A DNA stretch of 64,000 nucleotides, taken from NCBI GenBank assembly GCA_018303325.1, contig JAGVYH010000002.1, positions 17,246 to 81,245 of the forward strand, given 5' to 3'. The DNA is from Candidatus Woesearchaeota archaeon. GTDB lineage: Archaea > Nanobdellota > Nanobdellia > Woesearchaeales > DSVV01. Below the pieces are notes generated by a model that was not told where the DNA came from, ran no database searches, and worked only from the letters and a program-made list of their open reading frames with translations. Shown here piece after piece: positions 6,153 to 62,036 of the stretch. Made by a program: the position numbers and the translations under genes. How positions within the stretch are numbered: position 1 is the first letter of the stretch; every line of letters begins with the position of its first letter.

Positions 6153-7523
6153 ATGAAAATTTTATTTGTTTATCCACCACCATTTGAAGATAAGATTTTT
6201 TCCAATTTAGTCTATCCTCCCCTAGGTATATTATTTCTTGCAAGCGTTGTTAGAGAAATGGGGCATGATGTAAAAGTATTTGATGCGAATGTGTTGCGTG
6301 CAAGTTTTGAAGAAACAGTTAATTATATAAAAGAAATTAAGCCAGACATAGTTGGAATAACAGCAGCAACTGCAAATGGACCAAGTACATTTAAGCTTGC
6401 AGCAAAGATAAAGGAAATCGAACCGTCTGTCAAAATTATTTCTGGTGGGCCACATATTACTGTCGCACCAGAAGAGTGCCTAAATGATGAAAATATTGAT
6501 TATATTCTTGTTGGTGAAGGTGAGGCAACAATTAAAGAGTTAATTGAAGCATTAGAATCAGGTAGTGACCCAAATAAAGTAAAAGGAATTGGTTTTAGAA
6601 AAGGAAAAAAAATAATTATAACACCAAAACGTGAATTAATTCATGATTTGGACTTATTGCCAATGCCGGCATATGATCTTATTCCTATCGACAAATATTG
6701 GTCACCACAAATTACTGAATTTCCGTTTACAAGCATGATAACAAGCAGAGGCTGCCCTTATCACTGCATATTTTGTGGTGTTCAAGCAATATTTGGCTAC
6801 CAATATCGTTTTATGAGTGCAGAAAAAATGTTTTTTCAGGTTCAGGAATTACAAAAAAAGTTTGATGTTAAGACAATCATATTTAAAGACAGCGAATTTG
6901 CTTTAAGAAAAGATAGAATAGAAAAATTTTGTGATTTAATCATTAAAAATAATGTTAAAGTAAAATGGCTTTGTAATGCACGCGTTAATAATATGACTAA
7001 TGAACTTCTAACAAAAATGAAAAATGCTGGATGTTATTCAATAACATATGGTGTTGAATCTGGTTCTGAAAGGATTCTTACTGTGCTTAAGAAAAATATT
7101 ACGTTGAACCAAGCACGAGAAACAATAAAACTCACAAAAGAAGTTGGTATTGAATGTGCAGCCAATTTTATATTAGGAAATCCGACAGAAACAAAAGAAG
7201 ATATCGAAAAAACAATAAACTTTGCGATTGAATTAAATCCAGATTATGCAATGTTTTCATATTTAGTTCCTTATCCTGGGACTGAGATTCATGAAATGGC
7301 AGCACATAATAGTTGGGTTATCAATGATTTAGATAATGTATATAAAAACAGCTCTGTGGTTATGAATGCTACGGCTTTAACAACAAAAGAGTTATCTAAA
7401 TATATGAAAAAAGCTTATTTTAAATTTTACTTTAGACCACGATTTATTTGGAAAACAATTAAAAACTTAAAATTCTCTGACTTAAAAACAAAACTGCCTG
7501 CTTTAATTGATATATTAAAGTAG
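6153..7523 (+). CDS. B12-binding domain radical SAM protein
   Basis: N-terminal cobalamin-binding Rossmann domain (PPLGILFLASV...DANV). CPYHCIFC radical SAM CxxxCxxC cluster. Confidence 0.85.
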   Translation: MKILFVYPPPFEDKIFSNLVYPPLGILFLASVVREMGHDVKVFDANVLRASFEETVNYIKEIKPDIVGITAATANGPSTFKLAAKIKEIEPSVKIISGGPHITVAPEECLNDENIDYILVGEGEATIKELIEALESGSDPNKVKGIGFRKGKKIIITPKRELIHDLDLLPMPAYDLIPIDKYWSPQITEFPFTSMITSRGCPYHCIFCGVQAIFGYQYRFMSAEKMFFQVQELQKKFDVKTIIFKDSEFALRKDRIEKFCDLIIKNNVKVKWLCNARVNNMTNELLTKMKNAGCYSITYGVESGSERILTVLKKNITLNQARETIKLTKEVGIECAANFILGNPTETKEDIEKTINFAIELNPDYAMFSYLVPYPGTEIHEMAAHNSWVINDLDNVYKNSSVVMNATALTTKELSKYMKKAYFKFYFRPRFIWKTIKNLKFSDLKTKLPALIDILK

Positions 7524-12006: not shown

Positions 12007-13446
12007 TTGAGACTGAATAAACACAAAATGAAGATAATTTTTATTAATCCACCATTTACTAATTATGTTGGCGGCATAAAAGGGTATGGAGGAAAATCTA
12101 TGCCCTTAAACCTAACTTATTTAGCATCGTATTTAATAAGCAAAGGTTATGAAAATACTTCAATTCTAGATGCCGAAGCATTAGAATTAAGTTATGAACA
12201 AGTATTAGAACATATAAAGAAAGAAGACCCAGACATTATTGGTTTCACATCACCTACCCCTTCTTTTCAGCAGGTTGTTGATTTATCTAACTTGATAAAA
12301 CAACAAAACCCTCACGTGAAAATAATCATCGGTGGACCACATTCATCTGCTCTGCCACTAGACACAGCAAAAGAACCATCTTTAGATTTTGTTTGTTTTG
12401 GAGAAGGAGAATTAACAATGTTAGAGCTTGTTGAATTCATAGAAAAAGGCAGAACAGATTATGATAAAATTGATGGATTAATATATAAAGAAGGGGAAAA
12501 AATTATTCAAAACAAGCAAAGAAAATTAACAGAGAATTTAGATATTTTTCCTTTCCCTGTAAGAAATTTAGTGCCTAGACATCTTTATTATCCACCGCCA
12601 ACAAAAAGTGTAAGTGACAAAAAAGGAACTTCTATGGTAACTTCCAGAGGTTGTCCATTCAATTGTACATATTGTGTTGCAAAAGTAGTATGGACAAGAA
12701 GAGTGAGATATAGAAGTGTTAAAAATGTCGTCGATGAAATGGAAGAATGTGTTAACAAGTATAACCTTGGGGAATTTAATATTCATGACGAGCTGTTTAC
12801 AGCAAATGAAAAGAGAGTTATAGAATTATGCAAAGAGATAATTAATAGAAAACTTGATGTTGGATGGGTATGTATGGCAAGAGTAGATACAATTCATTCA
12901 AAAGAAATGCTGGAATATATGAAAAAAGCTGGATGCGGTAAAATTGTTTTTGGTTTTGAGTCTGGCTCACAAAAAATTTTAGATCTCATGAAAAAAGGTA
13001 CAACTGTTGAACAAGCAATACGTGCTGTAAAACTTGTTAAAGAATCTGGAATCAAAACATCTGGAAATTTCATGTTAGGGAACATTGGTGAAACGCTAGA
13101 AACAATGAGAGAAACAATTGATATGGCTAAAAAACTAAATACAGATACTATTGCTTTTTTTCAGACAAGCCCGTATCCTGGCACAGAGATTTATTATACT
13201 GCACTTGAAAAAGGGTATTTAAGAAAAGATATACAATGGAAGGATTTTGCACTATTATCTAAGACTGCCCCAGCTTTAAATCTTCCAAACTTACCGCCAG
13301 AAGAAGTAGCAAAATGGGTAAAAAAAGGATATAAAGAATTTTATTTAAGGCCCAGTTATATATTAAATCAGATAGCATGTATAAAAAATTGGCGTGATGC
13401 CAAAAGAATGTGGCAGGGAATAAAACTTCTTGTTCAGGTTAGTTAA
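12007..13446 (+). CDS. B12-binding domain radical SAM protein
   Basis: B12-binding N-domain. TSRGCPFNCTYC radical SAM cluster. Confidence 0.85.
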   Translation: MRLNKHKMKIIFINPPFTNYVGGIKGYGGKSMPLNLTYLASYLISKGYENTSILDAEALELSYEQVLEHIKKEDPDIIGFTSPTPSFQQVVDLSNLIKQQNPHVKIIIGGPHSSALPLDTAKEPSLDFVCFGEGELTMLELVEFIEKGRTDYDKIDGLIYKEGEKIIQNKQRKLTENLDIFPFPVRNLVPRHLYYPPPTKSVSDKKGTSMVTSRGCPFNCTYCVAKVVWTRRVRYRSVKNVVDEMEECVNKYNLGEFNIHDELFTANEKRVIELCKEIINRKLDVGWVCMARVDTIHSKEMLEYMKKAGCGKIVFGFESGSQKILDLMKKGTTVEQAIRAVKLVKESGIKTSGNFMLGNIGETLETMRETIDMAKKLNTDTIAFFQTSPYPGTEIYYTALEKGYLRKDIQWKDFALLSKTAPALNLPNLPPEEVAKWVKKGYKEFYLRPSYILNQIACIKNWRDAKRMWQGIKLLVQVS

Positions 13447-30368: not shown

Positions 30369-31853
30369 CTAAGAACTGGTTATTATTTTTGGATTATTTT
30401 TAATTATTTGAACTGCTTTTTTCATTGTTTTTTTAAGACCGTGTTTTTTTGTAGCATAATAAACCATTTTGAATTTTGTTTTGATATCTTCCATCATTCT
30501 TCTCGGATGCAACAATCTATATTTATTTATATCATTTCTTATATCATTTTCAAGCCGCCTTAATTTTTTGATAAATTCCTCATTATTAAAATCAGTACAA
30601 TTAAGGTATAAATCATTAACACCTTCTAACCCCATTAAATAATTTAATTCATCGCTTATTAATCCTTGCTCTTTTGCCCATTCATAAAGCTTTGTTCCTG
30701 GTAAAGGAGTAGTTACAGCAAATCCTGACGTTGGTTCAACATGAAGGCTTTTACAAAATTCTCTTGTTTCTTTTATTGAGTTTTCATCCTCACCAGGGTA
30801 TCCAAACATCATTTGCACTATTGGCTTCATTCCTGCATTTAATGTCTCTTGTATAGCATATTTATTTAATTCAACTGTGCTCTTTTTGTTCATATTATCT
30901 AATATTCTTTGGCTTCCTGATTCAATCCCATATCCTACATAAACACAACCCGCCTCTTTCATTTTCTTTAACAAAGAAGGAGTTATACAATTAACTCTGC
31001 CTTGGCACATCCAAGATATATTTAATGGTTTAATTTTGCCACATAACTCTAACATTCGGCTTTCACTAATCATTACCAATTCTTCTGCAAATTGTATCTG
31101 TGTGACATTGTACTTTTTTCTTAGTATACTAATTTCTTCGATTATCTTGTCTATTGATCTTAATCTTACACCATTAAAAGTTTTTGAGCAGAAATAACAA
31201 TTCCATGGACAGCCTCTTGCAGTTATTACATTCATACTGTTTGGATATTCTGGCTCAAAGAAAAAAGGGGTCTTTAAATATGATTCGATTGAAAATAAAT
31301 TCCATGCAGGCAATTCAATTGAATCTATGTCCTTGAGTTGAGTTTCATTAGTGGTTCGGATATATATCCCATTCTTCATAAAAGTAATGCCCTTTACGGT
31401 TTTTAGTTGTTCAAAATAGTTATCAGCATTACTCTTTTCTATTGTTTTAAGAATATTAGGCAGGATGATTTCTCCCTCCCCCATAACACAAATATCTACT
31501 TTTGTATTTTTTAACACAATTTCGCTGCTATGCATGGCCAATGCACCACCCAGAATAATCAAAGGGGAATTTGCTTTTGATTTAATATGCGTACTAATCC
31601 ACTTTACATATTTAAATTCTGGAGACATAGCAGAAATTCCAACACAATCAAAATTCTTTTTTTGTATAATTGATAAAACTTCTTCGTCAGTATACATCAT
31701 AACATCTATATCCAGTATATCTACTTGATAACCATCTTTAATAAGATGGGATGCGATATATGCTAATCCCAAAGGCAACCAAGCTGCATATCTTCGTTTA
31801 CCATTATATATCTGCGGTAGATGTATTAATAATATTTTTTTCATTTGAAACAC
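30369..31853 (-). CDS. B12-binding domain radical SAM protein
   Basis: B12-binding N-domain and ARGCPWNCYFC cluster. Confidence 0.85.
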   Translation of the reverse strand: MFQMKKILLIHLPQIYNGKRRYAAWLPLGLAYIASHLIKDGYQVDILDIDVMMYTDEEVLSIIQKKNFDCVGISAMSPEFKYVKWISTHIKSKANSPLIILGGALAMHSSEIVLKNTKVDICVMGEGEIILPNILKTIEKSNADNYFEQLKTVKGITFMKNGIYIRTTNETQLKDIDSIELPAWNLFSIESYLKTPFFFEPEYPNSMNVITARGCPWNCYFCSKTFNGVRLRSIDKIIEEISILRKKYNVTQIQFAEELVMISESRMLELCGKIKPLNISWMCQGRVNCITPSLLKKMKEAGCVYVGYGIESGSQRILDNMNKKSTVELNKYAIQETLNAGMKPIVQMMFGYPGEDENSIKETREFCKSLHVEPTSGFAVTTPLPGTKLYEWAKEQGLISDELNYLMGLEGVNDLYLNCTDFNNEEFIKKLRRLENDIRNDINKYRLLHPRRMMEDIKTKFKMVYYATKKHGLKKTMKKAVQIIKNNPKIITSS

Positions 31854-37608: not shown

Positions 37609-38802
37609 CTAAGTGTATTTACAACCATCTACATTAAGATTATTATAGATTATACCACACTTTCCATTTGGTAAACTGCCACCTGATGTACAATCTTGTG
37701 AATAATCATTAACCACTTCATTTGTACAAGGATTAATTGTTTGATTTATAACATAACTACCTGTCTTGCATTTTATAACTTTTTGTGGTGTACAATCTGA
37801 TGGAATCGTTTGACATTTACCGTCTGAATCGTAGCAGGTTGCGCCTGATGGACAGGTTGGTTCATAAGAGAGAGGATAACCCATCTTATCATAACCAACC
37901 CATTTATCATTAATTTTACAAATATACTTAGCATATTGATAAATCTCACTTGAATAATAATTTGTGCATGCGTACATTATATCACCCTCATTACAATTAA
38001 TAGTACATTTTGCTGAACCTGAACTTGAATCTGAACAAACGTAAGGTTCTTTTGTGTACCAATCTTTTGTAGTTGTACAATCTATATAATTATCCTTTAA
38101 CTCACCAGTACAACTATTTTTTGTCTGATTGTATAAAACATTACCTTGACATTCTGATTTAACAATTTCATTATTACAGCATCCAACATTGTCTTTACAG
38201 AGGGAATTATCATTCCATCCACAATATTTTTGATCATTGTTATTCAAATAAGTTGTGCAATCTGCATTTTGATATTCTTTTCTGTATTCGATATAATTAT
38301 ATTCATTCACACATTTGCCATTCCCTGTTGGACCTGGTTCGCATGTAACTGGGTTTGGTGGAACGCATGCACCATTTTCACAATGATAATTACCCATTAT
38401 TTTATTGCATGCGAATTTAGTCGATGTAATCTTCATTTTGCCACCAATAGCTGTGGTACATTTATATTCGATAAGATTTAATATACTAGCGCAATAATCT
38501 GTTTGAGACTGTGATTTATATGTAACTGTTGATGCTTTTTTATATTGTTCACTTACAGGACTAAAAGAACCATCAGGATCATTACATCCTAGTTTAGAAT
38601 ACGCTCCTCTAAACGCCTGTCCAGCCAATCCAACACTTTCGCTTGTTTCTCCTTCATCACTTGTTAGAACATCTTCTTCTGTTGTCCCGCTAAACCCACC
38701 ATAATTAGTCGTCATCACAACAATACCAACAACTGCCACGATTGCAACAATCGCAATTAAATACAAAGAATACTTTTTCACGTCTTTTTCCAAATTAATC
38801 AC
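37609..38802 (-). CDS. cysteine-rich extracellular protein with N-terminal signal anchor
   Basis: One N-terminal TM helix followed by 30 Cys in about 330 aa, rich in N/Y/T/K. Confidence 0.55.
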   Translation of the reverse strand: MINLEKDVKKYSLYLIAIVAIVAVVGIVVMTTNYGGFSGTTEEDVLTSDEGETSESVGLAGQAFRGAYSKLGCNDPDGSFSPVSEQYKKASTVTYKSQSQTDYCASILNLIEYKCTTAIGGKMKITSTKFACNKIMGNYHCENGACVPPNPVTCEPGPTGNGKCVNEYNYIEYRKEYQNADCTTYLNNNDQKYCGWNDNSLCKDNVGCCNNEIVKSECQGNVLYNQTKNSCTGELKDNYIDCTTTKDWYTKEPYVCSDSSSGSAKCTINCNEGDIMYACTNYYSSEIYQYAKYICKINDKWVGYDKMGYPLSYEPTCPSGATCYDSDGKCQTIPSDCTPQKVIKCKTGSYVINQTINPCTNEVVNDYSQDCTSGGSLPNGKCGIIYNNLNVDGCKYT

Positions 38803-38884
38803 CTTTTTTGTTTTAAATTGTTTAAAATTATCTATAGGAAATAACTTTAATTTTCGGATAAACTGAAATTAATATAAAGTTATA

Positions 38885-39040
38885 ATGTCGGACATAAATA
38901 CTTATACAAATAGTTATGTCCGATAAATATAGTAAGTGACACGATTTGTATAAAAATTTAGGTCACTTACTATATTTCCTAATAATCAAATCACTTTCTG
39001 TTAGTCCTAATGTTCCGATTATTAAAGTGATTTGATATAA
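38885..39040. repeat. cluster of three unique long-spacer dyad symmetries in a divergent promoter region
   Basis: TCGGACATA-n18-TATGTCCGA. AGTAAGTGAC-n21-GTCACTTACT. ATCAAATCACTTT-n26-AAAGTGATTTGAT. Confidence 0.55.
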
Positions 39041-39132: not shown

Positions 39133-39519
39133 ATGATAGTACTGCCAATGGAACAATCTGAAAAAGCTAAAAACAAAACATATATTGGATTATATGAAAA
39201 AGTAACATTAATGGGCAACAATACGCCAAACAAAGAAGTTATCGCTAAAATAGACACAGGTGCAACAAGGAGTTCTATTGATGTCAAACTTGCAGCAGGC
39301 TTGAAATTAGGGCCTGTATTGACATCAAGAATGATTAAGAGCGCGCAAGGCTCGACATTAAGACCGATTGTTGAAGGCGAAATTATTATCGCTGGAAAAC
39401 AATTAAAGGTTCATTTCACGATTGCCAACAGATCAAAAATGAAATATTCCATGCTGATTGGACAGGATGTTTTAAAAGAAGGTGAGTTTTTGATTGATCC
39501 GAGTAAGATATTAAATTAG
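39133..39519 (+). CDS. retropepsin-like aspartic peptidase (RimK-associated, DUF785-type)
   Basis: IDTGATRSSID catalytic DTG(A) motif. Adjacent to the RimK homologue. Confidence 0.7.
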   Translation: MIVLPMEQSEKAKNKTYIGLYEKVTLMGNNTPNKEVIAKIDTGATRSSIDVKLAAGLKLGPVLTSRMIKSAQGSTLRPIVEGEIIIAGKQLKVHFTIANRSKMKYSMLIGQDVLKEGEFLIDPSKILN

Positions 39520-39567
39520 GAAAAGGAGTATTTGTTTATCTGATATTATCTTTTTAGCATATAAAAC

Positions 39568-39756
39568 ACGTTTGTGGGACGCAGTCAATGTCATTAAGTT
39601 AAGCAATTCCAAACCACCAGACGCTTTAAATCATGGGCATCTGCTCAGATTTCCAGCAAGACATTATCGCGTCATTTTGTCGTACCTTCAGACCATCAAA
39701 CCATATCACCATCTTACCTTTTTTCGTGAACGTGTCCAATCAGGTAGGAACTAAAC
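39568..39756 (-). repeat. Family B MITE-like intergenic element, copy B1 (minus orientation)
   Basis: Minus strand starts with GTTTAGTTCC and ends with GACTGCGTCCCACAAAC. The 60-aa track ORF 39572-39754 lies wholly inside it. Confidence 0.65.
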
Positions 39757-39778
39757 AAATATAAAAAAAAGATATAAT

Positions 39779-39912
39779 TATACTAAAAGCACAAAATAAT
39801 CAAACATTATTTTGTGCTTTTGTATATACAAAAGCAATTAATTACAAACTGGGTATTATGCCCCGCAGCTTGCTGCGACACCCAGTTTGTAATTAATTGC
39901 TTTTAGTATATA
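39779..39912. repeat. Family A copy A2, with a 47-bp GC-rich nested hairpin inserted in the second hairpin loop
   Basis: Same two stems as A1. Insert is ACAAACTGGGT...GCAGCTTGCTGC...ACCCAGTTTGT. Confidence 0.7.
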
Positions 39913-39948
39913 ACAATAAAACAAAGAATAAATCGTGAATAAACAAAA

Positions 39949-41031
39949 ATGAAAGCCGCAGTTATAAGTTTAGGAAGTGTAAGTTCGCAATGGACAATTG
40001 AAGCTATGAAAACCTATTTTAAGGTTGTTGATGCTATTGATATAAGGGGATTAGAGGTAAAGTTAGGAAAAAAAAATATTGAAATTCTTTACAACAGCAA
40101 ACAGTTAGGTGAATATGACTGTATTTACGCAAAAGGCTCGTTTAGGTATGCGCAAATATTAAGGGTTTTAACAACTGCATATTCTCATAAATGTTATCTT
40201 CCATTAAAAGCAGAAACATTTACTTTAGGCCATAACAAGCTTCTGACACAATTAAAACTGCAGGAAGCTGGAATTCCTATGCCAAAAACTTATCTTACAT
40301 CAACAACAATATCTGCTAAAAATCTTTTAGAAAGTATTACTTACCCTATTATTATGAAATTCCCAGAAGGTTCACATGGCAAGGGCGTGATGTATGCTGA
40401 CAGTTATGCTGGTGCAAACTCAATCCTTGATGCATTAACAACCCTTAACCAGCCGTTTATTATCCAAGAATATATTGAAACAGAGGGAACAGATATACGT
40501 GCATTTGTTGTCGGCAATAAAGTTGTTGCATCAATGAAAAGAAAGGCAGCGAAAGAAGAAAAAAGGTCAAATATCCATGCTGGCGGCACAGGAGAAGCAA
40601 TTGAATTAGACAGCCAAACAAAAAAGATTGCGATAAAAACAGCGAAAGCACTTGGGTGTGATATTTGCGGTGTAGATATTCTGGAAAGCGGTTTAGGGCC
40701 TTTGGTTATAGAAGTTAATTTAAGCCCAGGGCTGCAAGGGATTACTAAATCAACAAAAATTAATATTGCTGACAAGATTGCAAAGTTTTTGTTTGAGAAA
40801 GCATCTGAATTCAAAAATTATATGGAAGGAAAGGTTAAAACATCTGAAATATTGAATGAGTGCGGGATTGACAGAGAAAAGCATAATGATAAAGAAATTA
40901 TAGCCAACTTATCTTTGAGAGGAAAAAAGATAGTTCTGCCTGAAATTATTACAGAGATTAGTGATTTTGACGAGAACCAAGAAGTAACTATTTCTGCCAG
41001 CAAAGGCAAGGTTGTTATTAAGAAGTTTTGA
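39949..41031 (+). CDS. RimK-family ATP-grasp peptide ligase with C-terminal extension
   Basis: Pre-ATP-grasp and ATP-grasp motifs. Confidence 0.8.
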   Translation: MKAAVISLGSVSSQWTIEAMKTYFKVVDAIDIRGLEVKLGKKNIEILYNSKQLGEYDCIYAKGSFRYAQILRVLTTAYSHKCYLPLKAETFTLGHNKLLTQLKLQEAGIPMPKTYLTSTTISAKNLLESITYPIIMKFPEGSHGKGVMYADSYAGANSILDALTTLNQPFIIQEYIETEGTDIRAFVVGNKVVASMKRKAAKEEKRSNIHAGGTGEAIELDSQTKKIAIKTAKALGCDICGVDILESGLGPLVIEVNLSPGLQGITKSTKINIADKIAKFLFEKASEFKNYMEGKVKTSEILNECGIDREKHNDKEIIANLSLRGKKIVLPEIITEISDFDENQEVTISASKGKVVIKKF

Positions 41032-41062
41032 GTATTGTTTTAGAGTGTTGTTTTATATTGAT

Positions 41063-41158
41063 TATATACTAAAAGTGATTAATTTCCGAACAAATTAATC
41101 ACTTTTGTATATACAAAAGTGCAAAATAATGTTCGATTATTTTGCACTTTTAGTATAT
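41063..41158. repeat. Family A copy A3, inverted orientation with compensatory stem substitutions
   Basis: GCAATTAATT/AATTAATTGC in A1 is GTGATTAATT/AATTAATCAC here. GCACAAAATAAT/ATTATTTTGTGC is GTGCAAAATAAT/ATTATTTTGCAC. Confidence 0.7.
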
Positions 41159-41185
41159 TATAAACGTATAAAATTAAAAGATACT

Positions 41186-41266
41186 ATGAATTTATTCTTC
41201 ATGAGACTGTGGACTGCGTCCCACAAACTGGTTGAGAGCGGATTTACCATTAAGGTTAGTGGGTAC
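41186..41266 (+). repeat. Family B 3' module only (B5)
   Basis: TTCATGAGACTGTGGACTGCGTCCCACAAACTGGTTGAGAGCGG...GGTTAGTGGGTAC. Confidence 0.6.
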
Positions 41267-41423
41267 TAAACAATAAAAGACCTATTTTATATAAATTATA
41301 AGCATAAGACTTATATATGTGTTAAACACACATGATAATCAATAGTGTTTAGCATTGTGTTGTTCCTTTCCTTTCACAATGGAAATACTATGAACATTAT
41401 TCTATTTTAAAGGAGGGATATGT

Positions 41424-41807
41424 ATGGAAGAGCAACTAAAGAACGTGCTCATTGTTGATGATGAGCCGCATATTGTGAATTTGATTAAGCTTAGCTTAAA
41501 CAAAGACAAGTATAGTGTGATTGGCGCTTATTCTGCGAGAGAAGCATTGATGCACATTAATAAGACAACACCGGATATTGTTGTTTTAGACTTGATGATG
41601 CCTGGTGTAAATGGGTATGAACTATGCAAAGCATTAAGAGAAAACCCTAAAACACAGAATATACCTATTTTAATATTAAGCGCTAAGAGCCAGATGAATG
41701 ACAAACTGCATGCAATTGATGTAGGTGCAGATGATTACATGACAAAACCATTTGATCCGATGGAGCTTATTAAAAGAATCAAGCTAAACCTAAACATGGC
41801 ACAATAA
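41424..41807 (+). CDS. stand-alone response regulator receiver (CheY-like)
   Basis: VLIVDDEP, phospho-acceptor VVLDLMMPG and MTKPF motifs. Confidence 0.85.
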   Translation: MEEQLKNVLIVDDEPHIVNLIKLSLNKDKYSVIGAYSAREALMHINKTTPDIVVLDLMMPGVNGYELCKALRENPKTQNIPILILSAKSQMNDKLHAIDVGADDYMTKPFDPMELIKRIKLNLNMAQ

Positions 41808-41904
41808 ACAAAAAAAGGGATTGTTCGACATATAAAATTTTACATATGTTTTACGTTATCTCCAACGATATTTTACGTCTAACATTAAACATTCAATTAA
41901 ACAG

Positions 41905-42924
41905 GTGATTACCATAAAAAACAATAATGATGAAATAAAAGATAAAATAATTGAATTCCTGAAAACAACAACTATTGGAGAGCCATCTACTGAGATTTCC
42001 AAACAGATAGGGCATAACAGGTTAACTATCTCAAAATATCTGGAGGTTCTTCAGGCACAGGGCATTGTCACAAACCAGGAGATGGCACAGGCAAAACTGT
42101 GGAAACTTGCAGAGGAAGAAAAAATTCCCAGCATATTAATAGTCGACGATGAACCTCATGTAGTTAATCTTATCAAGCTAAGCCTAAACCCCGACAAATT
42201 CAAGGTATTTGAGGCATATTCAGGAAATGAAGCATTGGAAATAATAAGAAGCAACAAGATTGATTTAGTTGTTTTAGATTTAATGATGCCAGGAATGACT
42301 GGCTTTCAGGTCTGTAAAATTTTAAAACAAAACCCATTGACGTCAAATATTCACGTGATTATTTTAAGTGCAAAAGGCGAAATAAAAGATAAGATTAATG
42401 GTATAGAGCATGGCGCAGATGATTACATCACCAAACCATTTGATCCGCTGGAATTAGAAGCGAGGATAAGCTTAAGCCTAAAACATCCTGCAACTAATGA
42501 CTCCAAACATCCTGTAACAAAACTTCCAACAAAAAAAAATATCGAGGAGCAGCTGCATAATTTTATGTTTGAGAACAAGGATTTTCATGTATACAGCTTT
42601 AACTTAACTGGTCTTGACAAATTTGCAGAAAAGAAAGGGCATAAGAAAGTAAATGAGCTGCTTGTTTTGTTTACAAGACTGCTTAATAATAATATCTTGG
42701 AAAAAGAGTGTTTTTTAGGGCATACAATTTCAAACAGTTTTGTTGTTATCGGAGATATTAAAGGGCTTGACGACGAAATATCTAAAGAATTCAGGAAAAT
42801 ACTGCCGTACATCGATGAGCAGTCTCAAAGCTTAAAGCTGGATGTTAACAAGCTCAGCAATAAAGAGATACTGCAAAGAAATATTCATGCAACAGATGTG
42901 CTAAAAGAGATAAAAGTATCATAA
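41905..42924 (+). CDS. response regulator: winged-HTH, receiver and degenerate GGDEF-like domain
   Basis: N-terminal HTH (TISKYLEVL). REC domain (ILIVDDEP...VVLDLMMPG). C-terminal GGDEF fold start (LTGLDKFAEKKGHKKVNELL) with GGDEF replaced by ISNSF. GTG start. Confidence 0.7.
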   Translation: MITIKNNNDEIKDKIIEFLKTTTIGEPSTEISKQIGHNRLTISKYLEVLQAQGIVTNQEMAQAKLWKLAEEEKIPSILIVDDEPHVVNLIKLSLNPDKFKVFEAYSGNEALEIIRSNKIDLVVLDLMMPGMTGFQVCKILKQNPLTSNIHVIILSAKGEIKDKINGIEHGADDYITKPFDPLELEARISLSLKHPATNDSKHPVTKLPTKKNIEEQLHNFMFENKDFHVYSFNLTGLDKFAEKKGHKKVNELLVLFTRLLNNNILEKECFLGHTISNSFVVIGDIKGLDDEISKEFRKILPYIDEQSQSLKLDVNKLSNKEILQRNIHATDVLKEIKVS

Positions 42925-42943
42925 TTTTTTAGATTAAAAACAG

Positions 42944-44563
42944 TTGAGTTTAAAGTATATGGCACTTTCAGTAAAAAATAAACTGCTGGCAATGATTATG
43001 TTTTTAGTAGCTATGGCAGTATTTCTTTTTGGGGTTTATCTTCTTTATTTTTTTAATATAACACAATTTAATGCCACCGGCAATATTGTATTGGAAACTT
43101 CGCAAGAAAATACAAATGATAATAATAATAACCTAAAAAATATCAACAGTATCAACAACAATATAGGATTAGAAAATCTAATTATTGTAGGATTAGGAAT
43201 TATTGTGAGTTTGGCATTGGTTGGGTTAGCACTGATACAAATAATGATAAGACCATTGGATAAAGTGATTATTGGAACGCAGCTTGTTGCAAAAGGCGAG
43301 TTTCCTCAAATAGAAAAAACCAGCAACGACGAATTTGGAAGATTGGTTACTTCATTCAATCAAATGGTTGATAAGCTAAAAGAAGGAGAAAAAGAAGAAA
43401 AAAAAGCAAAAGGCATTGCAACAAAAGAAAAGACCAAGTCAGAACTGATTATAGAATCTATGGCTGAAGGGGTAATTGTCACAAACAAAGAACACAAGAT
43501 AAGCGTGTTCAACAAAGCAGCAGAGAATATATTTAACATTGAACAGAAAAAGGCATTAGGCCGGCACATACTGCAGCTAAACAAGTATGGAATTAATAAT
43601 ATTTATCTTGATCCGAAAAAGATTTGTGAAATTGATGAAAGTGTTGATGGGAAAATAAGCAAAGTATACAAAAATATTGAGTTTAAGATAAAACATCTTG
43701 ACAAAATCGTTGGCGCTACAATTTCTCCATTAACAGACGAGAAAGATAAGTTTTGCGGGTCTGTATGTGTGTTAAGAGATATAACAAACACAAAAAGAAC
43801 GGACAATATGAAGTCAGAGTTTATCAGCACAGTAAGCCATGAATTAAGAACCCCATTGACAAGCATAAAAGGCTACGCATCACTGCTTAATCTTGAGAAG
43901 CTTGGCAATATTAATTATCAGCAGTCAAATGCAATCAAAGTAATAAACCAAGAATCTGACAGGTTAATGGCAATAATAGACCAGCTGTTGGACATATCTA
44001 AATTAGAGGAAGGTTATAAGCTTAATATTCAAAAAACAAAGATTGGCGAATGCATAGATAATTCTCCTGCGCTTGAAACTGCAAAGAAAAAGAATATTTC
44101 TGTACAGAAAAACCTGCAAAATCTGCCTGAAATAGAAATCGACAAAAACAGGATAACAGATGTGTTTACCAATTTAATATGCAATGCGGTGAAATACAGT
44201 AAAGAAGGCAGCAGTATAAGGATTACAGCAAAAAAAAGAAATAAGAACATTCAATTCGATGTGATTGATAAGGGAATAGGAATAAAAAAAGATGATTTAA
44301 ATAAAGTATTTGAAAAATTTTATCAGGCAGAAGATCCTATGATAAGGCAGCAGGGCGGCTCTGGATTAGGGTTATCTATCGTCAAAAAAATCATAGAACT
44401 GCATAACGGCACAATAAATATACAAAGTGAATTTGGTTATGGGACAACTATTAGTTTTACGCTGCCATTGAAGTTCAATAATAATAAGATTAATGATGAT
44501 AATAAAAATAGTAAGTATAATAATTATAATTATATTAATAATCAAAGGGATAATAAGCTTTAA
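42944..44563 (+). CDS. sensor histidine kinase (TM-HAMP-PAS-HisKA-HATPase)
   Basis: H-box SHELRTPLTSIKGY and G-box GGSGLGLSIV. Asn-rich low-complexity tail. Confidence 0.9.
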   Translation: MSLKYMALSVKNKLLAMIMFLVAMAVFLFGVYLLYFFNITQFNATGNIVLETSQENTNDNNNNLKNINSINNNIGLENLIIVGLGIIVSLALVGLALIQIMIRPLDKVIIGTQLVAKGEFPQIEKTSNDEFGRLVTSFNQMVDKLKEGEKEEKKAKGIATKEKTKSELIIESMAEGVIVTNKEHKISVFNKAAENIFNIEQKKALGRHILQLNKYGINNIYLDPKKICEIDESVDGKISKVYKNIEFKIKHLDKIVGATISPLTDEKDKFCGSVCVLRDITNTKRTDNMKSEFISTVSHELRTPLTSIKGYASLLNLEKLGNINYQQSNAIKVINQESDRLMAIIDQLLDISKLEEGYKLNIQKTKIGECIDNSPALETAKKKNISVQKNLQNLPEIEIDKNRITDVFTNLICNAVKYSKEGSSIRITAKKRNKNIQFDVIDKGIGIKKDDLNKVFEKFYQAEDPMIRQQGGSGLGLSIVKKIIELHNGTINIQSEFGYGTTISFTLPLKFNNNKINDDNKNSKYNNYNYINNQRDNKL

Positions 44564-44577
44564 GAGGGAGGCAAAAA

Positions 44578-44952
44578 ATGGTTAAGACCCTTAAGATTCT
44601 TATTGCAGAGGATGAAGAAAATATAGTGAATCTTATCAGACTGATATTGGGCGATAAATATGAATTAGTTGTAGTAAATGACGGCGAGGAAGCAATTAAG
44701 CTGGCAGAGAACTTAAAACCTGATTTAATCATACTGGATGTAATGATGCCTAAGATAAACGGATTTCAGGTTTGTGAAACATTAAAGAAAGATAAAAGAA
44801 CTAACCAAATTAAAATAATCTTCCTCAGCGCAAAAGTGATGAAAAATGATGTCAGTAAAGGATTAAGCTGCGGCGCAATTGATTACATAAAAAAACCATT
44901 TGAGCCCGAAGAGTTTGAGAGGAGAATAAAATCTGCTATAGAACTAAGGTGA
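44578..44952 (+). CDS. stand-alone response regulator receiver
   Basis: ILIAEDEE, LIILDVMMP and IKKPF motifs. Confidence 0.85.
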   Translation: MVKTLKILIAEDEENIVNLIRLILGDKYELVVVNDGEEAIKLAENLKPDLIILDVMMPKINGFQVCETLKKDKRTNQIKIIFLSAKVMKNDVSKGLSCGAIDYIKKPFEPEEFERRIKSAIELR

Positions 44953-45080
44953 AATGAAAATTGACTGAAGAAATAAAGAGAATTGAAGAAAAAATTGAAG
45001 AGGCGAAAATATAGAGAAAATAGCAGATTACAACAATAGAGATTTGAACTTGTTTTGCTATTAATACAAATGGTGGGAAT

Positions 45081-48000
45081 ATGGAATATAAATTAAATAC
45101 TTGCTGTTTAATGTCAATTAATGAAATTATAGATATAATGAACCATGAAAAAGGCCATAAACAGCAATTATTAGAATTGGCAAAACACATTAATAGTATT
45201 ATACCCAATGATCATTTATCTTTTTCAACAGTTGATGAAGATAAAAGAATAGGTTCTCTTTACAATGTGCAAAGTGATATACACAGTAATAGCAAAAAAA
45301 AAGAACCTATAACAGAATATAATATTACTTATAAAAAAGAATCAAGAGAAGAGAATAACGAAACATTCAAGCAGGTTAATTCTATATTTTCATCACATGA
45401 AATAATTAATCATATATTGACAGAGAAAAAACCATTCATAATCCCATTTAATGAAAGTATATCAGATACACATATTAACAAAAAAAGAGCAGATAAGCAA
45501 ATAAAAGAATTATTAATCTGCCCTATTTTATACAATGATAAAATTATAGGGACTATTAATTTTACAAGTTATGAAGAAGAGGTATACAACAAAGGACATA
45601 TAGACTTTCTGAAAAGCATAACTGATTTATTAAACAGCTACACAACAAATATTTGGACCATACATAAATTAGAGGAAACTATTGAAAGATACAATGTATT
45701 ATTTGACACGTCTTCAAAAGGGATTATTATATGTGATGAAAAAGGATTAATAAAAACAATAAATGAGAAGTTTACAGAAATCGTCGAGATTTCAAAAGAG
45801 GAGCTGAAAGAAAAACAAGATGTAAAAGATGTATTTGGAGACGCAGTCAATAATGCTATTAACAAAGCAATAGAAAACAAGGATAAAAAAGAGAGCAGAC
45901 AAAAGGTAGTAAGGCTAAAAAAAATATATTTTGAGACAAGAAATGGTGAGAAGAAATTTATTGAGCTGAGCATTATTTTCTTAGCAAAAACAAAGGAGAT
46001 GCTGATTTCTGTATATGATGTTACCGCATTGTACGAAACAGAGAATAAACTAGAAGAACAGAATGCAATCTTCAAAAATTTGTACAGCATAAGCAAAGCT
46101 CTGCAAAATACTGATGACATGGAAGAAATATTTCAAATTACTATTAAGGCATTTAGAAATGAAGGTTATGACAGGGTAAGAATATATACTTATGACGAGG
46201 ATGAAAAGATTCTTATTGGAAAAAAAGCGTCTGATATAGATGATTCAGATATGGCAGATATAAAATTAAGAATTGAAGAAAAACACGAAAAGGTTTATCA
46301 CTGTTTTACTAAAAAGGAACCAATTATAACAAAAAACAAACAAACAACAACATTTTATAAGCTGTTAAAAAAAGAGGATGTTTTAGAGACAGCTAGCATT
46401 CCATTATTAAGCGGGGATAAGGTTCTTGGAATGGTAAGTCTCGACAACAAACAAAGCAAAAAACCGCTGCATATCGATGAATTAAATACACTTATACCTA
46501 TTGCCAATCAAATTGCAATTGCAATTGAAAATGCAATACTTCATCAGGAAGACAGAAAAAAATTAAAGAAGCTTACTGCAATGTATGATGTATCAATGTC
46601 TTTAAGCAAGATATTTGATTTGGAGAAGATTCTAAATCTGGTAATTATAAAGATTGTTAAAATTATAGGATGTGATATGTGCACTATTAACTTTCTTGAT
46701 GCGACCAAAGAATATTTTATTCCCAAATCAATATACAGCCACTCGCATGAATATTTTAAAAAAGGAAGAGTTTCAGTTAACCAAAGTGTTTGTGGCTTAG
46801 CAATAAAAACAAACCAGACAATCTTTATTGAGAATGTAATAAAAGAGCCATTATATGCCAATAAACTATTTGCGAAAAAAGAGCAGTTAAGAAGTATGTT
46901 AAGTATACCATTGATTACACAAGATGAAGCGATAGGAACAATCAATATTTATACAAAGAAGACAAAAAAATATTCAAAGGATGAGATAGACCTGCTTAAA
47001 GGCCTTGCAAACCAGGCTGCATTAAGTATAAGGAACTGCGAATTATACGACAACCTTAACAAAGAAATGGATGTTCTTTCAAATATATTAGAAACAAGCC
47101 AAAGCATAAATGCACAGCTTAACCTGGACAATTTACTTAAAATAACATTTGAAAAAACAATTGAATTAACTAAAGCAGATTCCGGCATTTTATTGCTCTT
47201 AAAGGATGATTTTCTCGAGATTAAATTAACAAAAGGATATGCAAAAGAAAAGGCAAGCATTATTAGAATCAAGAAAGATGAAGGAATATCCGGCTGGGTT
47301 GCAAGAAACGGAAAGCCTTTGATTATTGCAAATGTAAAAGATGACAAGCGATATGTAGAGATAAACAAGAAAACTGTTTCTGAGGCGGCAATACCACTGA
47401 TTAAGGCAGGAAAAGTTATTGGTGTCCTTAATTTTGAAAGCAGTAATTATGATAATTTCAGAAGGTTTGAGAAGCCATTAGAAATATTGACCAACCAAAT
47501 AGCTATTGCAATTGAAAATGCAAAGCTGTATCATGAAATCAGCCTGTTTAATGAAACCCTGAAAAACGAAGTTTACATGGCAACTAAAGAGCTCGTCGAG
47601 AAAAATAAAGAGCTTGAAAGAATGGCACAGCTCAAGTCTGATTTTGTCAGCAATGTAAGCCATGAATTAAGGACGCCATTGACAAGCATAAAAGGATACA
47701 GCAAATTACTGCTGGAAGGAAGGTTAGGTGAAGTTCCAGAGAAACAGGTTCAATGTTTAAAGATTATTCTTGAAGAAACTGACAGGCTGACAAGACTGAT
47801 TAATGAGATATTGGATCTTGCTAAGCTGGAGAAAGGAAAGGTTAAATTCAAAAAAGAAAAGATAAATATTGAAGAGGTTGCTCAAAAAGTGATTGAAACA
47901 TTAACTACATTGGCTGACGACAAGGATATTAAGATACATTTCACCCCAACAGGGAAGATATTTAATATTGCTGCCAGCCAAGATCTGATAAAACAGGTGT

Positions 48001-48329
48001 TTTTCAACCTTATCGGCAATGCAATCAAATTTACACCAAAGAAAGGCAGCATTTATGTGAATATTGAAAATATAGAAAATGAAATAAAAGTAACAATAAA
48101 AGACACAGGCATAGGAATAAAAAAAGAAATTGTACCAAAGATATTTGATAAGTTCTTTCAAGTTGACAGCTCAATGACAAGAGAGCATGGAGGCACAGGT
48201 TTAGGGCTGCCCATCTCGAAACATATCATTGATGCGCATAAAGGGAAGATTTTTGTCGAGAGCGAGGTAGGAAAAGGAAGCAGTTTTATATTTACACTGC
48301 CGATACAGAAAAAGATAGAAGAAGATTGA
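45081..48329 (+). CDS. large multi-sensor (GAF/PAS-rich) histidine kinase, 1082 aa
   Basis: Repeated GAF-like blocks. H-box SHELRTPLTSIKGY and HATPase GGTGLGLPISK at the C-terminus. Confidence 0.9.
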   Translation: MEYKLNTCCLMSINEIIDIMNHEKGHKQQLLELAKHINSIIPNDHLSFSTVDEDKRIGSLYNVQSDIHSNSKKKEPITEYNITYKKESREENNETFKQVNSIFSSHEIINHILTEKKPFIIPFNESISDTHINKKRADKQIKELLICPILYNDKIIGTINFTSYEEEVYNKGHIDFLKSITDLLNSYTTNIWTIHKLEETIERYNVLFDTSSKGIIICDEKGLIKTINEKFTEIVEISKEELKEKQDVKDVFGDAVNNAINKAIENKDKKESRQKVVRLKKIYFETRNGEKKFIELSIIFLAKTKEMLISVYDVTALYETENKLEEQNAIFKNLYSISKALQNTDDMEEIFQITIKAFRNEGYDRVRIYTYDEDEKILIGKKASDIDDSDMADIKLRIEEKHEKVYHCFTKKEPIITKNKQTTTFYKLLKKEDVLETASIPLLSGDKVLGMVSLDNKQSKKPLHIDELNTLIPIANQIAIAIENAILHQEDRKKLKKLTAMYDVSMSLSKIFDLEKILNLVIIKIVKIIGCDMCTINFLDATKEYFIPKSIYSHSHEYFKKGRVSVNQSVCGLAIKTNQTIFIENVIKEPLYANKLFAKKEQLRSMLSIPLITQDEAIGTINIYTKKTKKYSKDEIDLLKGLANQAALSIRNCELYDNLNKEMDVLSNILETSQSINAQLNLDNLLKITFEKTIELTKADSGILLLLKDDFLEIKLTKGYAKEKASIIRIKKDEGISGWVARNGKPLIIANVKDDKRYVEINKKTVSEAAIPLIKAGKVIGVLNFESSNYDNFRRFEKPLEILTNQIAIAIENAKLYHEISLFNETLKNEVYMATKELVEKNKELERMAQLKSDFVSNVSHELRTPLTSIKGYSKLLLEGRLGEVPEKQVQCLKIILEETDRLTRLINEILDLAKLEKGKVKFKKEKINIEEVAQKVIETLTTLADDKDIKIHFTPTGKIFNIAASQDLIKQVFFNLIGNAIKFTPKKGSIYVNIENIENEIKVTIKDTGIGIKKEIVPKIFDKFFQVDSSMTREHGGTGLGLPISKHIIDAHKGKIFVESEVGKGSSFIFTLPIQKKIEED

Positions 48330-50352: not shown

Positions 50353-51924
50353 CTATACCTCTGGTTCATAATGAATTTTTAACTCTTCTGCGCGCGAAGG
50401 AAGTCTTAATTTTCTTAATGCTTTTGCCTCTATTTGTCTTATTCTTTCTCTTGTTAAACCAAAATCATTCCCAACCTCATCTAAAGTATAATTTCTTTGT
50501 TCATCTATGCCAAACCTTTTTTTTAAGACTGTTTCTTCTCTAGCTGTCAATGTTGCCAAACCTTTTCTTACTGCCATGTTTTGATCAGTTTTTTCTGCTC
50601 CTGATAATGGGCTTGGTGTTGTGTTATCAGGTATAAAATCCTCTAATGTTGAATGCCCATCTTCATCTTTCCCAATAATTATGCTTAAACTGATTGGCTC
50701 TAATCTTTCTATTCTTAATATTTTATTTACTCGTTCCAATGGAAGTTCAGATGCTTCAGCAATTTCTTCTGGTGTTGGTTTAGGAATTCCTTTTGCTATT
50801 AAATGCTGTTTTATGCGGAGAATTTTATTATATTGCTCAGTCATATGAACAGGAATTCTTATAGTCTTGCCCTCATCGGCAATGCCCCTTATAATCGCTT
50901 GTCTTATCCACCATGTTGCATATGTGCTGAATTTATTGCCTGTTCTGTAATCAAAATGCTCAGCAGATTTAATTAATCCTTCATTACCTAAACCAACAAG
51001 ATCAGATAGTTCTAAGCCTCGGTTTCTATATTTTTTTGCAATTGAGATTACTAATCTTAAATTTGCATTGACAAATGCATTTTTTAAACCCGTGATTTGA
51101 TTACTATAATATCTCACATCAGATATCACCCTTGCCAAATAAGTTTTACCTTTTTCAGTTGTTAATACTTTAGGAGAGATTGTTTCTTTAAGAAGAGTCG
51201 GAAATCTATGCTTTGAGCCATTATCACTAATTTCCAGAGTTAGAATGTCTTTACTAACTCTTCCAATTACATTATCAAAATAAGCAGGTGTAAGGTGTAT
51301 GCTTGCCAAATAAGACAAAACCCTGTCCTGATATTTCAATTTAGTTTTGTTGTTCCATTTAATACTCGATTGCTCTTTTAACTCTTCTTTTAACTCTTCT
51401 TCAAATTCAAATAAATCCATAACTGTTTTATAAAAAAATGAGACATAATCTTCTTTCTGTAATGTATAACTATTCTCATTTAATTTATCACTTTCTGTTG
51501 GATTATCGTCTTGTAATGATTTATATTGTCTTGATTGTTTTGATTGTTTTGGTTGTCTTCTTGTTTTTTTTTCTGGCAGTTGGCCATTTCTTTGCACAAT
51601 ATACTCTAAAAAAGCAGGCTCTTCATTATAATTAGGGGTTGAGATAAAATCATTATGCCTGAAACTAGGAATGGTTAAAGACATCATTAAATTAACCAAC
51701 TCGTCCATAAAATAACCATGAAGATTAAAATAACATAGCAGGGATAATTGGTTCCAAGCTTTTTCCTGCACCTGACCTAATTCTTGTTCTCCTTCCCTTG
51801 TTAAAAGAACTGAGCCTGTTCCAACTTCTTTAAGATACAATCTTAGCGGGTCGTACCTTTCCTTAGCTTCTGTTTCCTGTTCTTTTTTGCGGTAATGATC
51901 GACCATAAAAACAGGTAACAGCAT
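50353..51924 (-). CDS. rpoD: RNA polymerase sigma-70 factor (primary sigma, RpoD/SigA)
   Basis: Region 1.2 (DPLRLYLKEVG). Region 2 (YATWWIRQAI). Region 4 (LTRERIRQIEAKALRKLR). Likely start at MVDH. Confidence 0.9.
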   Translation of the reverse strand: MLLPVFMVDHYRKKEQETEAKERYDPLRLYLKEVGTGSVLLTREGEQELGQVQEKAWNQLSLLCYFNLHGYFMDELVNLMMSLTIPSFRHNDFISTPNYNEEPAFLEYIVQRNGQLPEKKTRRQPKQSKQSRQYKSLQDDNPTESDKLNENSYTLQKEDYVSFFYKTVMDLFEFEEELKEELKEQSSIKWNNKTKLKYQDRVLSYLASIHLTPAYFDNVIGRVSKDILTLEISDNGSKHRFPTLLKETISPKVLTTEKGKTYLARVISDVRYYSNQITGLKNAFVNANLRLVISIAKKYRNRGLELSDLVGLGNEGLIKSAEHFDYRTGNKFSTYATWWIRQAIIRGIADEGKTIRIPVHMTEQYNKILRIKQHLIAKGIPKPTPEEIAEASELPLERVNKILRIERLEPISLSIIIGKDEDGHSTLEDFIPDNTTPSPLSGAEKTDQNMAVRKGLATLTAREETVLKKRFGIDEQRNYTLDEVGNDFGLTRERIRQIEAKALRKLRLPSRAEELKIHYEPEV

Positions 51925-60491: not shown

Positions 60492-62036
60492 ATGAACAAT
60501 CTTACTGAAAGATTTAAAAAAATTCTTAATAAAAAATGGTACATTCAGGGGTTTAATGGCTGCCTGAATTTCTGTTTTGCTGCTCCGCAGTCTGGATTAG
60601 TTGGATGTCATAATAATCTTGGATATGGTTACACAGAAAAAGTATTTATTTTTAACAAAGATTATGTTGAATATCTTTATCTTGAAGATGATTTTAGAAA
60701 TATTGGGAATACGTTTCTTGAGAAATACAAGAAAAACAAGAATTATCTCAAAGAAGTGATGAAAAAGGATGCAGTAATTGTTGCTTCATCAAAAAAAACA
60801 ATGAGCAAGATAGACAACACAGAATTAACAAAATTAAACAAACAAGAGCTGGTTAAATTATATCAGGAAATGCAAACTGCCTATCATGGAATTCTGGATG
60901 TAAGCCATATTATTGAAGGCATTTCTTTTGTCGTCGAACCGCTCCTGAAAAAAAAGATTGAAGATGCATTAAAACTTGAAAGGCATGATCCTGAATTTAG
61001 AAATATATTCAATCTGCTTATGCAACCTGCAAAGCCATCCTTTGCGAATGAAGAGTACATTGATATACTTGAAATTGTAAAATTAGTGAAAAAAGACAAA
61101 GAATTGTTTTCTTTATTCAATAAGTTAACACTTCAAGAAACAGCTGAAAGATTAAACAAAAACATAAAAGAAAAAATTATTGCACACAGAAAAAGATTTT
61201 TGTACAACCAGCTAAATTATTATCACGGGAATCCTTTAAGTGAATTAGATTATATTTCTGAAATAAAAAAACTGCTTGAAGAAAATATCGATATTGACGA
61301 TAAGCTTAAGGCAGAAAAAGAGAGATACACTTTAAATGCTAAGATGAGAGGGGGGATTATACACAAATATAAGTTTAATGATGAGATTACTTCATTAATT
61401 AATATATCGATGATGGTTCTTCACTGGCAGGATAATAGAAAAAAGAATATTTTGACTGGTGTTTATTACATGAATCTTTTGCTTGGCGAGATTGGCAGGA
61501 GATATAACATTCCATTAGAAAAGATAAAAAGATATCTTCCAGAGGAGATAACTGAAGATAAGCTTGATAATTTTAGTATGGATGATGCTAATGAAAGGAT
61601 GAAGCGTTATATTATTTACAGCAAAAGAGAAAATGGAAAGCTGATATTTGAAATTTATACAAAAGAGGATTATGAAAAGATTATGGATATTTACAATAAA
61701 ACATATATAGAACAAAATGATATTCACGGCGCATCAGCATCACCAGGCAAGATAATTGGTGTTGCAAGGATATGCAAAACAAAAGAAGATCTTTTGAAAT
61801 TTAAGGTTGGTGAAATACTAGTTGCATCAATGACAAGGCCGGAATTTGTGCCTGCAATGAAAAAAGCATCAGCCATAGTAACTGATGAAGGCGGGTTAAC
61901 GTGCCATGCATCTATTGTTTCCAGAGAATTAGGCAAGCCATGCATTGTAGGAACAAAGATTGCCACAAAAGTGTTAAAAGACGGCGATATGGTAGAAGTG
62001 AATGCAAACCACGGCACTGTAAAGAAGATAAAATAA
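60492..62036 (+). CDS. PEP-utilising-enzyme mobile (swivel phospho-His) domain protein with uncharacterised 400-aa N-terminal region
   Basis: C-terminal GGLTCHASIVSRELGKPCIVG matches the swivel-domain catalytic His motif. Confidence 0.6.
   Translation: MNNLTERFKKILNKKWYIQGFNGCLNFCFAAPQSGLVGCHNNLGYGYTEKVFIFNKDYVEYLYLEDDFRNIGNTFLEKYKKNKNYLKEVMKKDAVIVASSKKTMSKIDNTELTKLNKQELVKLYQEMQTAYHGILDVSHIIEGISFVVEPLLKKKIEDALKLERHDPEFRNIFNLLMQPAKPSFANEEYIDILEIVKLVKKDKELFSLFNKLTLQETAERLNKNIKEKIIAHRKRFLYNQLNYYHGNPLSELDYISEIKKLLEENIDIDDKLKAEKERYTLNAKMRGGIIHKYKFNDEITSLINISMMVLHWQDNRKKNILTGVYYMNLLLGEIGRRYNIPLEKIKRYLPEEITEDKLDNFSMDDANERMKRYIIYSKRENGKLIFEIYTKEDYEKIMDIYNKTYIEQNDIHGASASPGKIIGVARICKTKEDLLKFKVGEILVASMTRPEFVPAMKKASAIVTDEGGLTCHASIVSRELGKPCIVGTKIATKVLKDGDMVEVNANHGTVKKIK

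Follow-up and report, generated by a model that had tools for sequence, protein, structure and literature searches.

The prevailing view of DPANN archaea is that they live in attachment to other cells, and the molecules that make this contact are almost unknown. Their lineage-specific protein families are mostly membrane-bound or extracellular and remain unannotated (Castelle et al., 2021, PMC8204110). Among these families are large extracellular murein-transglycosylase proteins of Woesearchaeota and Pacearchaeota, for which a role in host attachment has been proposed (PMC8204110). A gene from the same lineage, whose product has the same predicted location, is found at positions 37609..38802 on the minus strand of the 64 kb stretch of DNA analysed here, termed the window. 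The open reading frame represents a real gene. It differs from the families above in that it belongs to a cysteine-rich family without an enzymatic domain and is built from four kinds of cysteine-rich module. The explanation that best accounts for the observations, and that is held with moderate confidence, is that the protein forms a disulfide-stiffened, N-glycosylated modular rod for attachment or spacing at a Woesearchaeota-type cell surface.

Residues are numbered from the GTG codon that opens the frame, which gives a version of 397 amino acids with the stop codon at 37609-37611; the features of the gene described below all lie on the minus strand. Translation yields 30 cysteines, the number counted by the first-pass annotation of this DNA. 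They lie between residues 73 and 394, and the first 72 residues are cysteine-free. Cysteine makes up 7.6% of the protein, against a mean of 1.37% and a maximum of 3.3% in the other 50 open reading frames of the window (z = 7.0), and the enrichment is far beyond chance. Asparagine (9.1%), threonine (8.6%) and tyrosine (8.3%) are also enriched. The gaps between successive cysteines have a median of 10 residues. A spacing of 8-15 residues, which was described at first as the recurring one, holds for 17 of the 29 gaps, but the full range extends from 1 to 31.

When 1.84 billion cluster representatives were scanned in full with HMMER, only 55 related proteins were returned at E <= 1e-3, and every relative that could be placed taxonomically is archaeal. 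The closest named homologue, P0003 (52% identity), is a hypothetical protein from a groundwater metagenome-assembled genome of Candidatus Woesearchaeota. Local jackhmmer dissection of the 55 homologues divides the ectodomain into five modules in the order A-B-C-D-C', each with exactly six cysteines. Module A (residues 72-148, 38359..38589) displays the pattern C-x-D-x-D...D-x-C...L-x-E-Y-x-C...C...C-x-x-G-A-C and is represented by 37 instances in 30 proteins, singly or in tandem. Module B (residues 152-208, 38179..38349), with the pattern TC-x-PG-x-TG-x-x-KC...EYQN-x-DC...CG...C-x-x-x-x-GC, has 38 instances in 32 proteins. Module C is the most frequent, with 57 instances in 39 proteins and a maximum of six per protein; its first copy here (residues 209-266, 38005..38178) carries a conserved glycosylation sequon. 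Module D (residues 268-332, 37807..38001), which ends in C-P-x-G-A-T-C-x-x-x-x-G-x-C, is mostly a C-terminal cap in the relatives; 14 instances were found at a strict threshold, and further divergent versions are present in alignment A3. The fifth module, C' (residues 335-397, 37612..37800), is a second copy of C. The two copies match each other directly by BLASTP (E = 1e-4) and by a jackhmmer cross-match (5.6e-17).

The modules are mobile within the family. P0041, P0049 and P0052 show module A singly or as tandem copies, P0015 has four B-C pairs, and P0032 has six copies of module C. As read from the alignments, the modules are lineage-specific and have been shuffled and duplicated among the relatives. 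Some relatives carry extra domains as well, namely thrombospondin type 3 (TSP3), LNR/Notch, EGF, PEGA, DUF4215 and MopE. The cysteine columns are nearly invariant, with pairwise conservation of 93-100% where the identity of the other residues is 31-50%; a co-loss analysis for disulfide partners found the columns too invariant to inform pairing. A profile search with alignment A3 against an index of 5.8 billion proteins, which is word-indexed and has poor reach for this family, returned P0003 alone. A degenerate-pattern scan with alignment A5, which reaches close relatives only, detected two genome loci, no viral locus and one metagenome locus. Within the 64 kb window itself, neither a paralogue of the gene nor a second protein with its type of leader was found.

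A single-sequence AlphaFold2 model was poor (predicted local distance difference test, pLDDT, 38), and a second model was built from A4, an alignment of module fragments with 84 rows. Its mean pLDDT is 83, 214 of the 330 residues score 90 or higher, and its predicted template modelling score (pTM) is 0.55. The model is all-beta, with long three-stranded sheets in modules B and C. Scores are high in A (pLDDT 87-97), in B with its three long beta strands (88-97) and in C (91-97), and range from 63 to 92 in D. Only C' is poorly modelled, its low pLDDT resulting from the two alignment rows that cover it. The first-pass annotation had left the choice between order and disorder to a prediction of this kind, and the ectodomain is predicted to be ordered.

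The modules have no counterpart in the domain databases. Neither Pfam nor NCBIfam yielded a match to modules A-D, whether for the query or for its 55 relatives, and the query as a whole gave no Pfam match at E <= 0.01. A sequence profile search of the PDB returned only noise (E 0.15). With the whole multi-module model as query, Foldseek detected nothing at E <= 1e-3 in either the PDB or BFVD. A search of the literature on cysteine-rich or disulfide-bonded surface proteins of DPANN archaea and Woesearchaeota found nothing on the A-D module family. As far as these resources extend, the four modules and the leader are undescribed; cysteine-rich modular surface proteins are familiar as a class.

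The leader comprises residues 1-68 and consists of a transmembrane helix, an acidic linker and a LAGQA motif. The N-terminal signal-anchor, SLYLIAIVAIVAVVGIVVMTT (residues 12-32, 38707..38769), was located by Kyte-Doolittle analysis. It is the single hydrophobic segment of the protein; the highest-scoring stretch of 19 residues, which begins at residue 13, reaches 2.93, and no other part of the protein comes close. The helix is flanked by a lysine-rich N-terminal side and an acidic C-terminal side. The linker that follows (residues 33-58, 38629..38706) is 26 residues long and rich in serine and threonine, with seven aspartate or glutamate residues, no lysine or arginine and eight serine or threonine residues; its pLDDT is low in the single-sequence model. 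The LAGQA motif (residues 59-63, 38614..38628) starts the folded ectodomain. Because there is a single helix with a lysine-rich N-terminus and an acidic linker, the protein is assigned an N-in/C-out topology as a signal anchor whose predicted helix is uncleaved, with all cysteines extracytoplasmic. The original description of a single N-terminal transmembrane anchor followed by an extracellular cysteine-rich domain is borne out by the hydropathy profile, all 30 cysteines being downstream of the helix.

Relatives start in one of two ways, with the conserved transmembrane leader or with a lipobox-type signal peptide. The acidic linker and the motif [LIV][ASTV]G[QE]A follow in both cases, and in most relatives this motif opens the folded ectodomain after either kind of leader. 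Of the 55 relatives, 20 were flagged for a lipobox-like pattern, with a few of the flags falling on fragments that lack the N-terminus. The query itself is not a lipoprotein by the lipobox test, as no cysteine is found before residue 73. Nor does it display the class III signal of type IV pilins, a short charged N-terminus with [KR]-[GA] directly ahead of the hydrophobic stretch, since its leader reads ...KDVKKYSLYLIAIV... with no glycine or alanine at position -1; a genuine class III signal peptide (MYKKGQVTIFMIIG...) is present for comparison in L012. A near-identical leader, K-x-YSLYLIAIVAIVAVVGIVVM followed by the acidic serine/threonine linker (38614-38793), is common to 27 proteins, some of them with unrelated ectodomains. 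A plain anchor would not usually be so conserved, and the leader may represent a lineage-specific sorting or processing signal.

Module C displays a conserved N-x-T/S sequon. It is found as N225-Q-T227 in the first copy (38122..38130) and as N353-Q-T355 at the equivalent position of C' (37738..37746). These are the only two N-x-S/T sequons of the protein, compared with 5.3 +/- 2.0 expected from shuffling, and both are N-Q-T. Over 56 instances of module C, the sequon column has asparagine in 46 and threonine or serine in 52, and the middle residue is freely variable. N-glycosylation of the C modules is suggested because the sole two sequons share one conserved module position, with a variable middle residue and alternation of threonine and serine. 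The site is both extracytoplasmic and conserved as a sequon, as in an archaeal N-glycoprotein that is a substrate of AglB.

The following picture may be drawn from these features. The uncleaved N-terminal helix holds the protein in the membrane with its N-terminus inside. The 26-residue linker and the LAGQA motif lead into the all-beta ectodomain, where three disulfides are expected to lock each module, for a total of 15. These bonds would make the ectodomain a rigid, protease-resistant rod that projects from the cell on a flexible acidic tether. Each C module would bear one N-glycan at its conserved N-x-T. Such a rod could represent an attachment or spacing element of the envelope, most likely one for contact with host cells or surfaces. 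The modules imply no catalytic function, and the protein is probably a surface stalk or attachment protein. An adhesin role may reasonably be inferred, because episymbiosis has been proposed for DPANN archaea (PMC8204110), adhesive-type domains are present in relatives and there is no catalytic signature.

The alternative that survives best is that the protein is a structural component of the envelope, such as a spacer or anchor associated with an S-layer, that has no specific ligand and does not recognize a host. It has an appreciable, although clearly smaller, probability. A stiff rod of all-beta modules tethered by a flexible acidic linker, as predicted here, would suit such a function, module number varies freely among the relatives as it does in spacer proteins, and no lectin or binding domain can be recognized. 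Against it, the family is small and patchy, with 55 representatives among 1.84 billion clusters and only two loci in the species genomes scanned, a scan that reaches close relatives only; a core component of the envelope ought to have a wider distribution. In addition, relatives join the modules to the adhesive-type domains TSP3, LNR and EGF, which speaks for attachment.

It was also considered that the protein might serve the neighbouring nonulosonic-acid/glycan island as its dedicated substrate, with which it would form a functionally linked gene pair. The gene abuts this 27 kb island, which encodes NeuB, DegT, glycosyltransferases and a flippase; glycosyltransferases are next to or near three other family members, and the sequon is conserved in the module. 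The orthologous Woesearchaeota locus keeps the RimK side of the neighbourhood but the glycan side is not syntenic, and the remaining family members have unrelated neighbours. The two glycosyltransferase family 4 (GT4) genes adjacent to other family members that were compared are not orthologous to those of the window, BLASTP detecting only family-level similarity. A conserved pair of an adjacent GT4 gene and a member of the cysteine-rich family was rejected on the same comparison. Dependence on the island is accordingly considered rather unlikely, and the proposal of the first-pass annotation that the protein is a glycosylation target by virtue of its position next to the island is not sustained, since the island side is not syntenic and the glycosyltransferases of the relatives are not orthologous.

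Several further features of the window were noted. The segment 18554-24261 of the glycan island encodes a fused CMP-transferase/NeuB, a PIG-L deacetylase, a formyltransferase and a UDP-GlcNAc 2-epimerase, with a 5-formyltetrahydrofolate cyclo-ligase and FolD adjacent. This gene set suggests that a nonulosonic-acid-type sugar is made in N-formylated form and that the folate for it is supplied locally. The island also has three paralogues of a B12-binding radical SAM enzyme at dispersed positions (6153-7523, 12007-13446 and 30369-31853), and a similar enzyme is located two genes from P0003 in its contig L001, after a Hydrolase_like open reading frame. A 610-amino-acid GT-C glycosyltransferase of the PMT_2 type, similar to dolichyl-phosphate-mannose protein mannosyltransferases, is encoded at 4037-5869 on the minus strand. 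This enzyme is a candidate modifier of serine/threonine-rich linkers such as residues 33-58.

Far less probable is the possibility that the cysteines bind metal, whether zinc, Fe-S, copper or sequestered heavy metals, and do not form disulfides. Small archaeal cysteine-rich "dark" domains are often read as metal binding (PMC13607799), and in one relative a metal-binding motif of the MopE type forms an additional domain. The query, however, has no CxxC and no CxxH motif, the marks of zinc ribbons and metal clusters, and only one histidine in 397 residues; its cysteines are spread along long beta strands at the median spacing of 10 residues. Among 39 relatives, 32 have an even number of ectodomain cysteines (binomial p = 3.5e-5), and several of the exceptions run up to the edge of a contig. 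An even number of cysteines is reportedly a criterion for exported disulfide-bonded proteins, one attributed to Dutton and colleagues in 2008. The query agrees with it in having an anchor that would place the cysteines outside the cytoplasm and 30 cysteines in five sets of six. Disulfides are favoured over metal on these grounds: the even counts, the six cysteines per module, the absence of CxxC, the single histidine and the predicted extracytoplasmic location. The suggestion made at the outset, that an even cysteine number is compatible with about 15 disulfides, has thereby gained a modular basis.

The weakest alternative, a toxin-like or defensin-like role, was also part of the original annotation; the protein would then be an antimicrobial module that the cell displays on its surface or releases there. 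Defensin-like peptides are under about 50 amino acids, cationic and released, with three or four disulfides; the protein is membrane-anchored, 394-397 amino acids long, made of modules of 57-77 amino acids and has 35 acidic against 30 basic residues in its ectodomain, and no sequence or fold match was found. Nothing supports this role, and it is considered most improbable.

The glycosylated, disulfide-stiffened rod, which is the reading preferred here, has the following points against it. The genomic context of the family is conserved in close relatives only and gives no clue to function. One sub-clade has S-x-T at the sequon column, so that the site is not universal, and the conserved N-x-T could be structural instead of a glycosylation site. 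No match to STT3/AglB is present within the window, and no Dsb, VKOR or thioredoxin-like gene was found in these 64 kb.

A more far-reaching possibility is that modules A-D represent new disulfide-rich folds of a lineage-specific host-contact apparatus of Woesearchaeota-type episymbionts. Its members would share a dedicated leader, composed of a transmembrane helix or lipobox, an acidic tether and LAGQA, that is read by a sorting or processing system, and their oxidative folding would be carried out by archaeal machinery. This proposal is speculative and regarded as doubtful.

The protein is probably 394 amino acids in length, with translation starting at the TTG codon whose first base is at 38793, three codons downstream of the GTG. 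This length is preferred because an independent gene call, P0001, begins at the TTG and is 100% identical from there, because the initiator methionines of the orthologue P0003 and of P0007 align with this codon, and because the GTG start overlaps a Shine-Dalgarno-like motif, GGTGAT. The motif, read from the sequence, is at 38798..38803, 4 nt upstream of the TTG at 38791-38793.

The window has a G + C content of about 30%, and the gene had been assigned to a small A + T-rich bacterial genome. That assignment does not stand. The host is a Woesearchaeota-type DPANN archaeon and a bacterium is excluded, judging from homology and gene content: the closest homologue is from Woesearchaeota and is encoded in a syntenic contig, the window encodes an archaeal/eukaryotic-type PTH2 and a class I lysyl-tRNA synthetase, and the neighbours of relatives are of archaeal character. 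Fibrillarin adjoins one other family member, and RtcB together with an open reading frame for a transcription-factor-S-like zinc ribbon, read from translations, adjoins another. Contigs related to the window come from groundwater metagenome-assembled genomes. The gene order common to window positions 39133-48329 and the P0003 contig (L001, 1-7605) comprises a RimB-like aspartyl protease, a RimK ATP-grasp ligase, two response regulators, a HAMP/PAS histidine kinase, a response regulator and a multi-GAF histidine kinase.

A sigma-70 homologue and a second open reading frame with a sigma-70 region are also encoded in the window, at 50353-51924 on the minus strand and at 60492-62036 on the plus strand. 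The homologue has regions 2, 3 and 4, and the second frame has sigma-70 region 4 plus a PEP-utilizers mobile domain. Sigma-70 is prevalent in Woesearchaeota (PMC8204110), and because of this record the bacterial-looking homologue is compatible with an archaeal host.

The intergenic region between the cysteine-rich gene and the rimB-like gene (38880-39040) displays three consecutive strong hairpins. They are formed by perfect inverted repeats of 13 nt and 16 nt and a 16-nt repeat with 88% complementarity. The predicted RNA fold of the region has a free energy of -47.2 kcal/mol (z = -7.0 relative to shuffled sequences). The element has no Rfam match, its 16-mer is unique in the window and it is not conserved in the orthologous locus of L001. 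It could represent operator sites, a small RNA or a miniature mobile element.

For a lineage in which most specific surface proteins have no annotation, this family supplies four compact, confidently predicted modules that are absent from domain databases, one of them with a conserved putative glycosylation site. These offer concrete starting points for expression and structural work, as well as for labelling with antibodies and pull-downs of hosts. The family also raises the question of how an archaeon with a reduced genome would form about 15 extracellular disulfides in one protein.

Analogous proteins are known from several other systems. The variant-specific surface proteins of Giardia are membrane-anchored, very cysteine-rich coat proteins of a host-dependent anaerobic parasite, with CXXC motifs and a C-terminal anchor. 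Unlike these proteins, the archaeal protein lacks CXXC and has its anchor at the N-terminus, and no homology was found. The best structural matches are to the fungal cysteine-rich effectors Avr1/SIX4 and Avr3/SIX1 and to CBM14 domains (Avr4, Blo t 12, Der p 23). In these secreted proteins, small beta domains are stabilised by disulfides, and the superpositions on CBM14 and fungal effector folds are below significance. The myxococcal repeats DUF4215 and TIGR02232 (myxo_disulf_rpt) are likewise prokaryotic disulfide-rich surface repeats and are present as extra domains in two to three relatives. The query has no profile match to them, and its cysteine spacing and motifs differ.

A parallel in architecture is offered by the extracellular cysteine-rich modules of eukaryotic type, namely EGF-like, LNR/Notch and thrombospondin repeats. 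The query has no match to the EGF profiles, which call for six cysteines at EGF spacing in about 40 amino acids, and EGF_2 matches are found in only two relatives, outside modules A-D. Unlike the EGF, LNR and thrombospondin modules, A-D are without Pfam or NCBIfam matches, display long three-stranded beta sheets with no significant match in the PDB and occur in an archaeal host. Both groups are small, roughly 40-75 amino acids per module, contain six cysteines and are shuffled or repeated in tandem in membrane-anchored extracellular proteins, and in some relatives genuine EGF, LNR and TSP3 domains stand beside A-D modules in the same protein.
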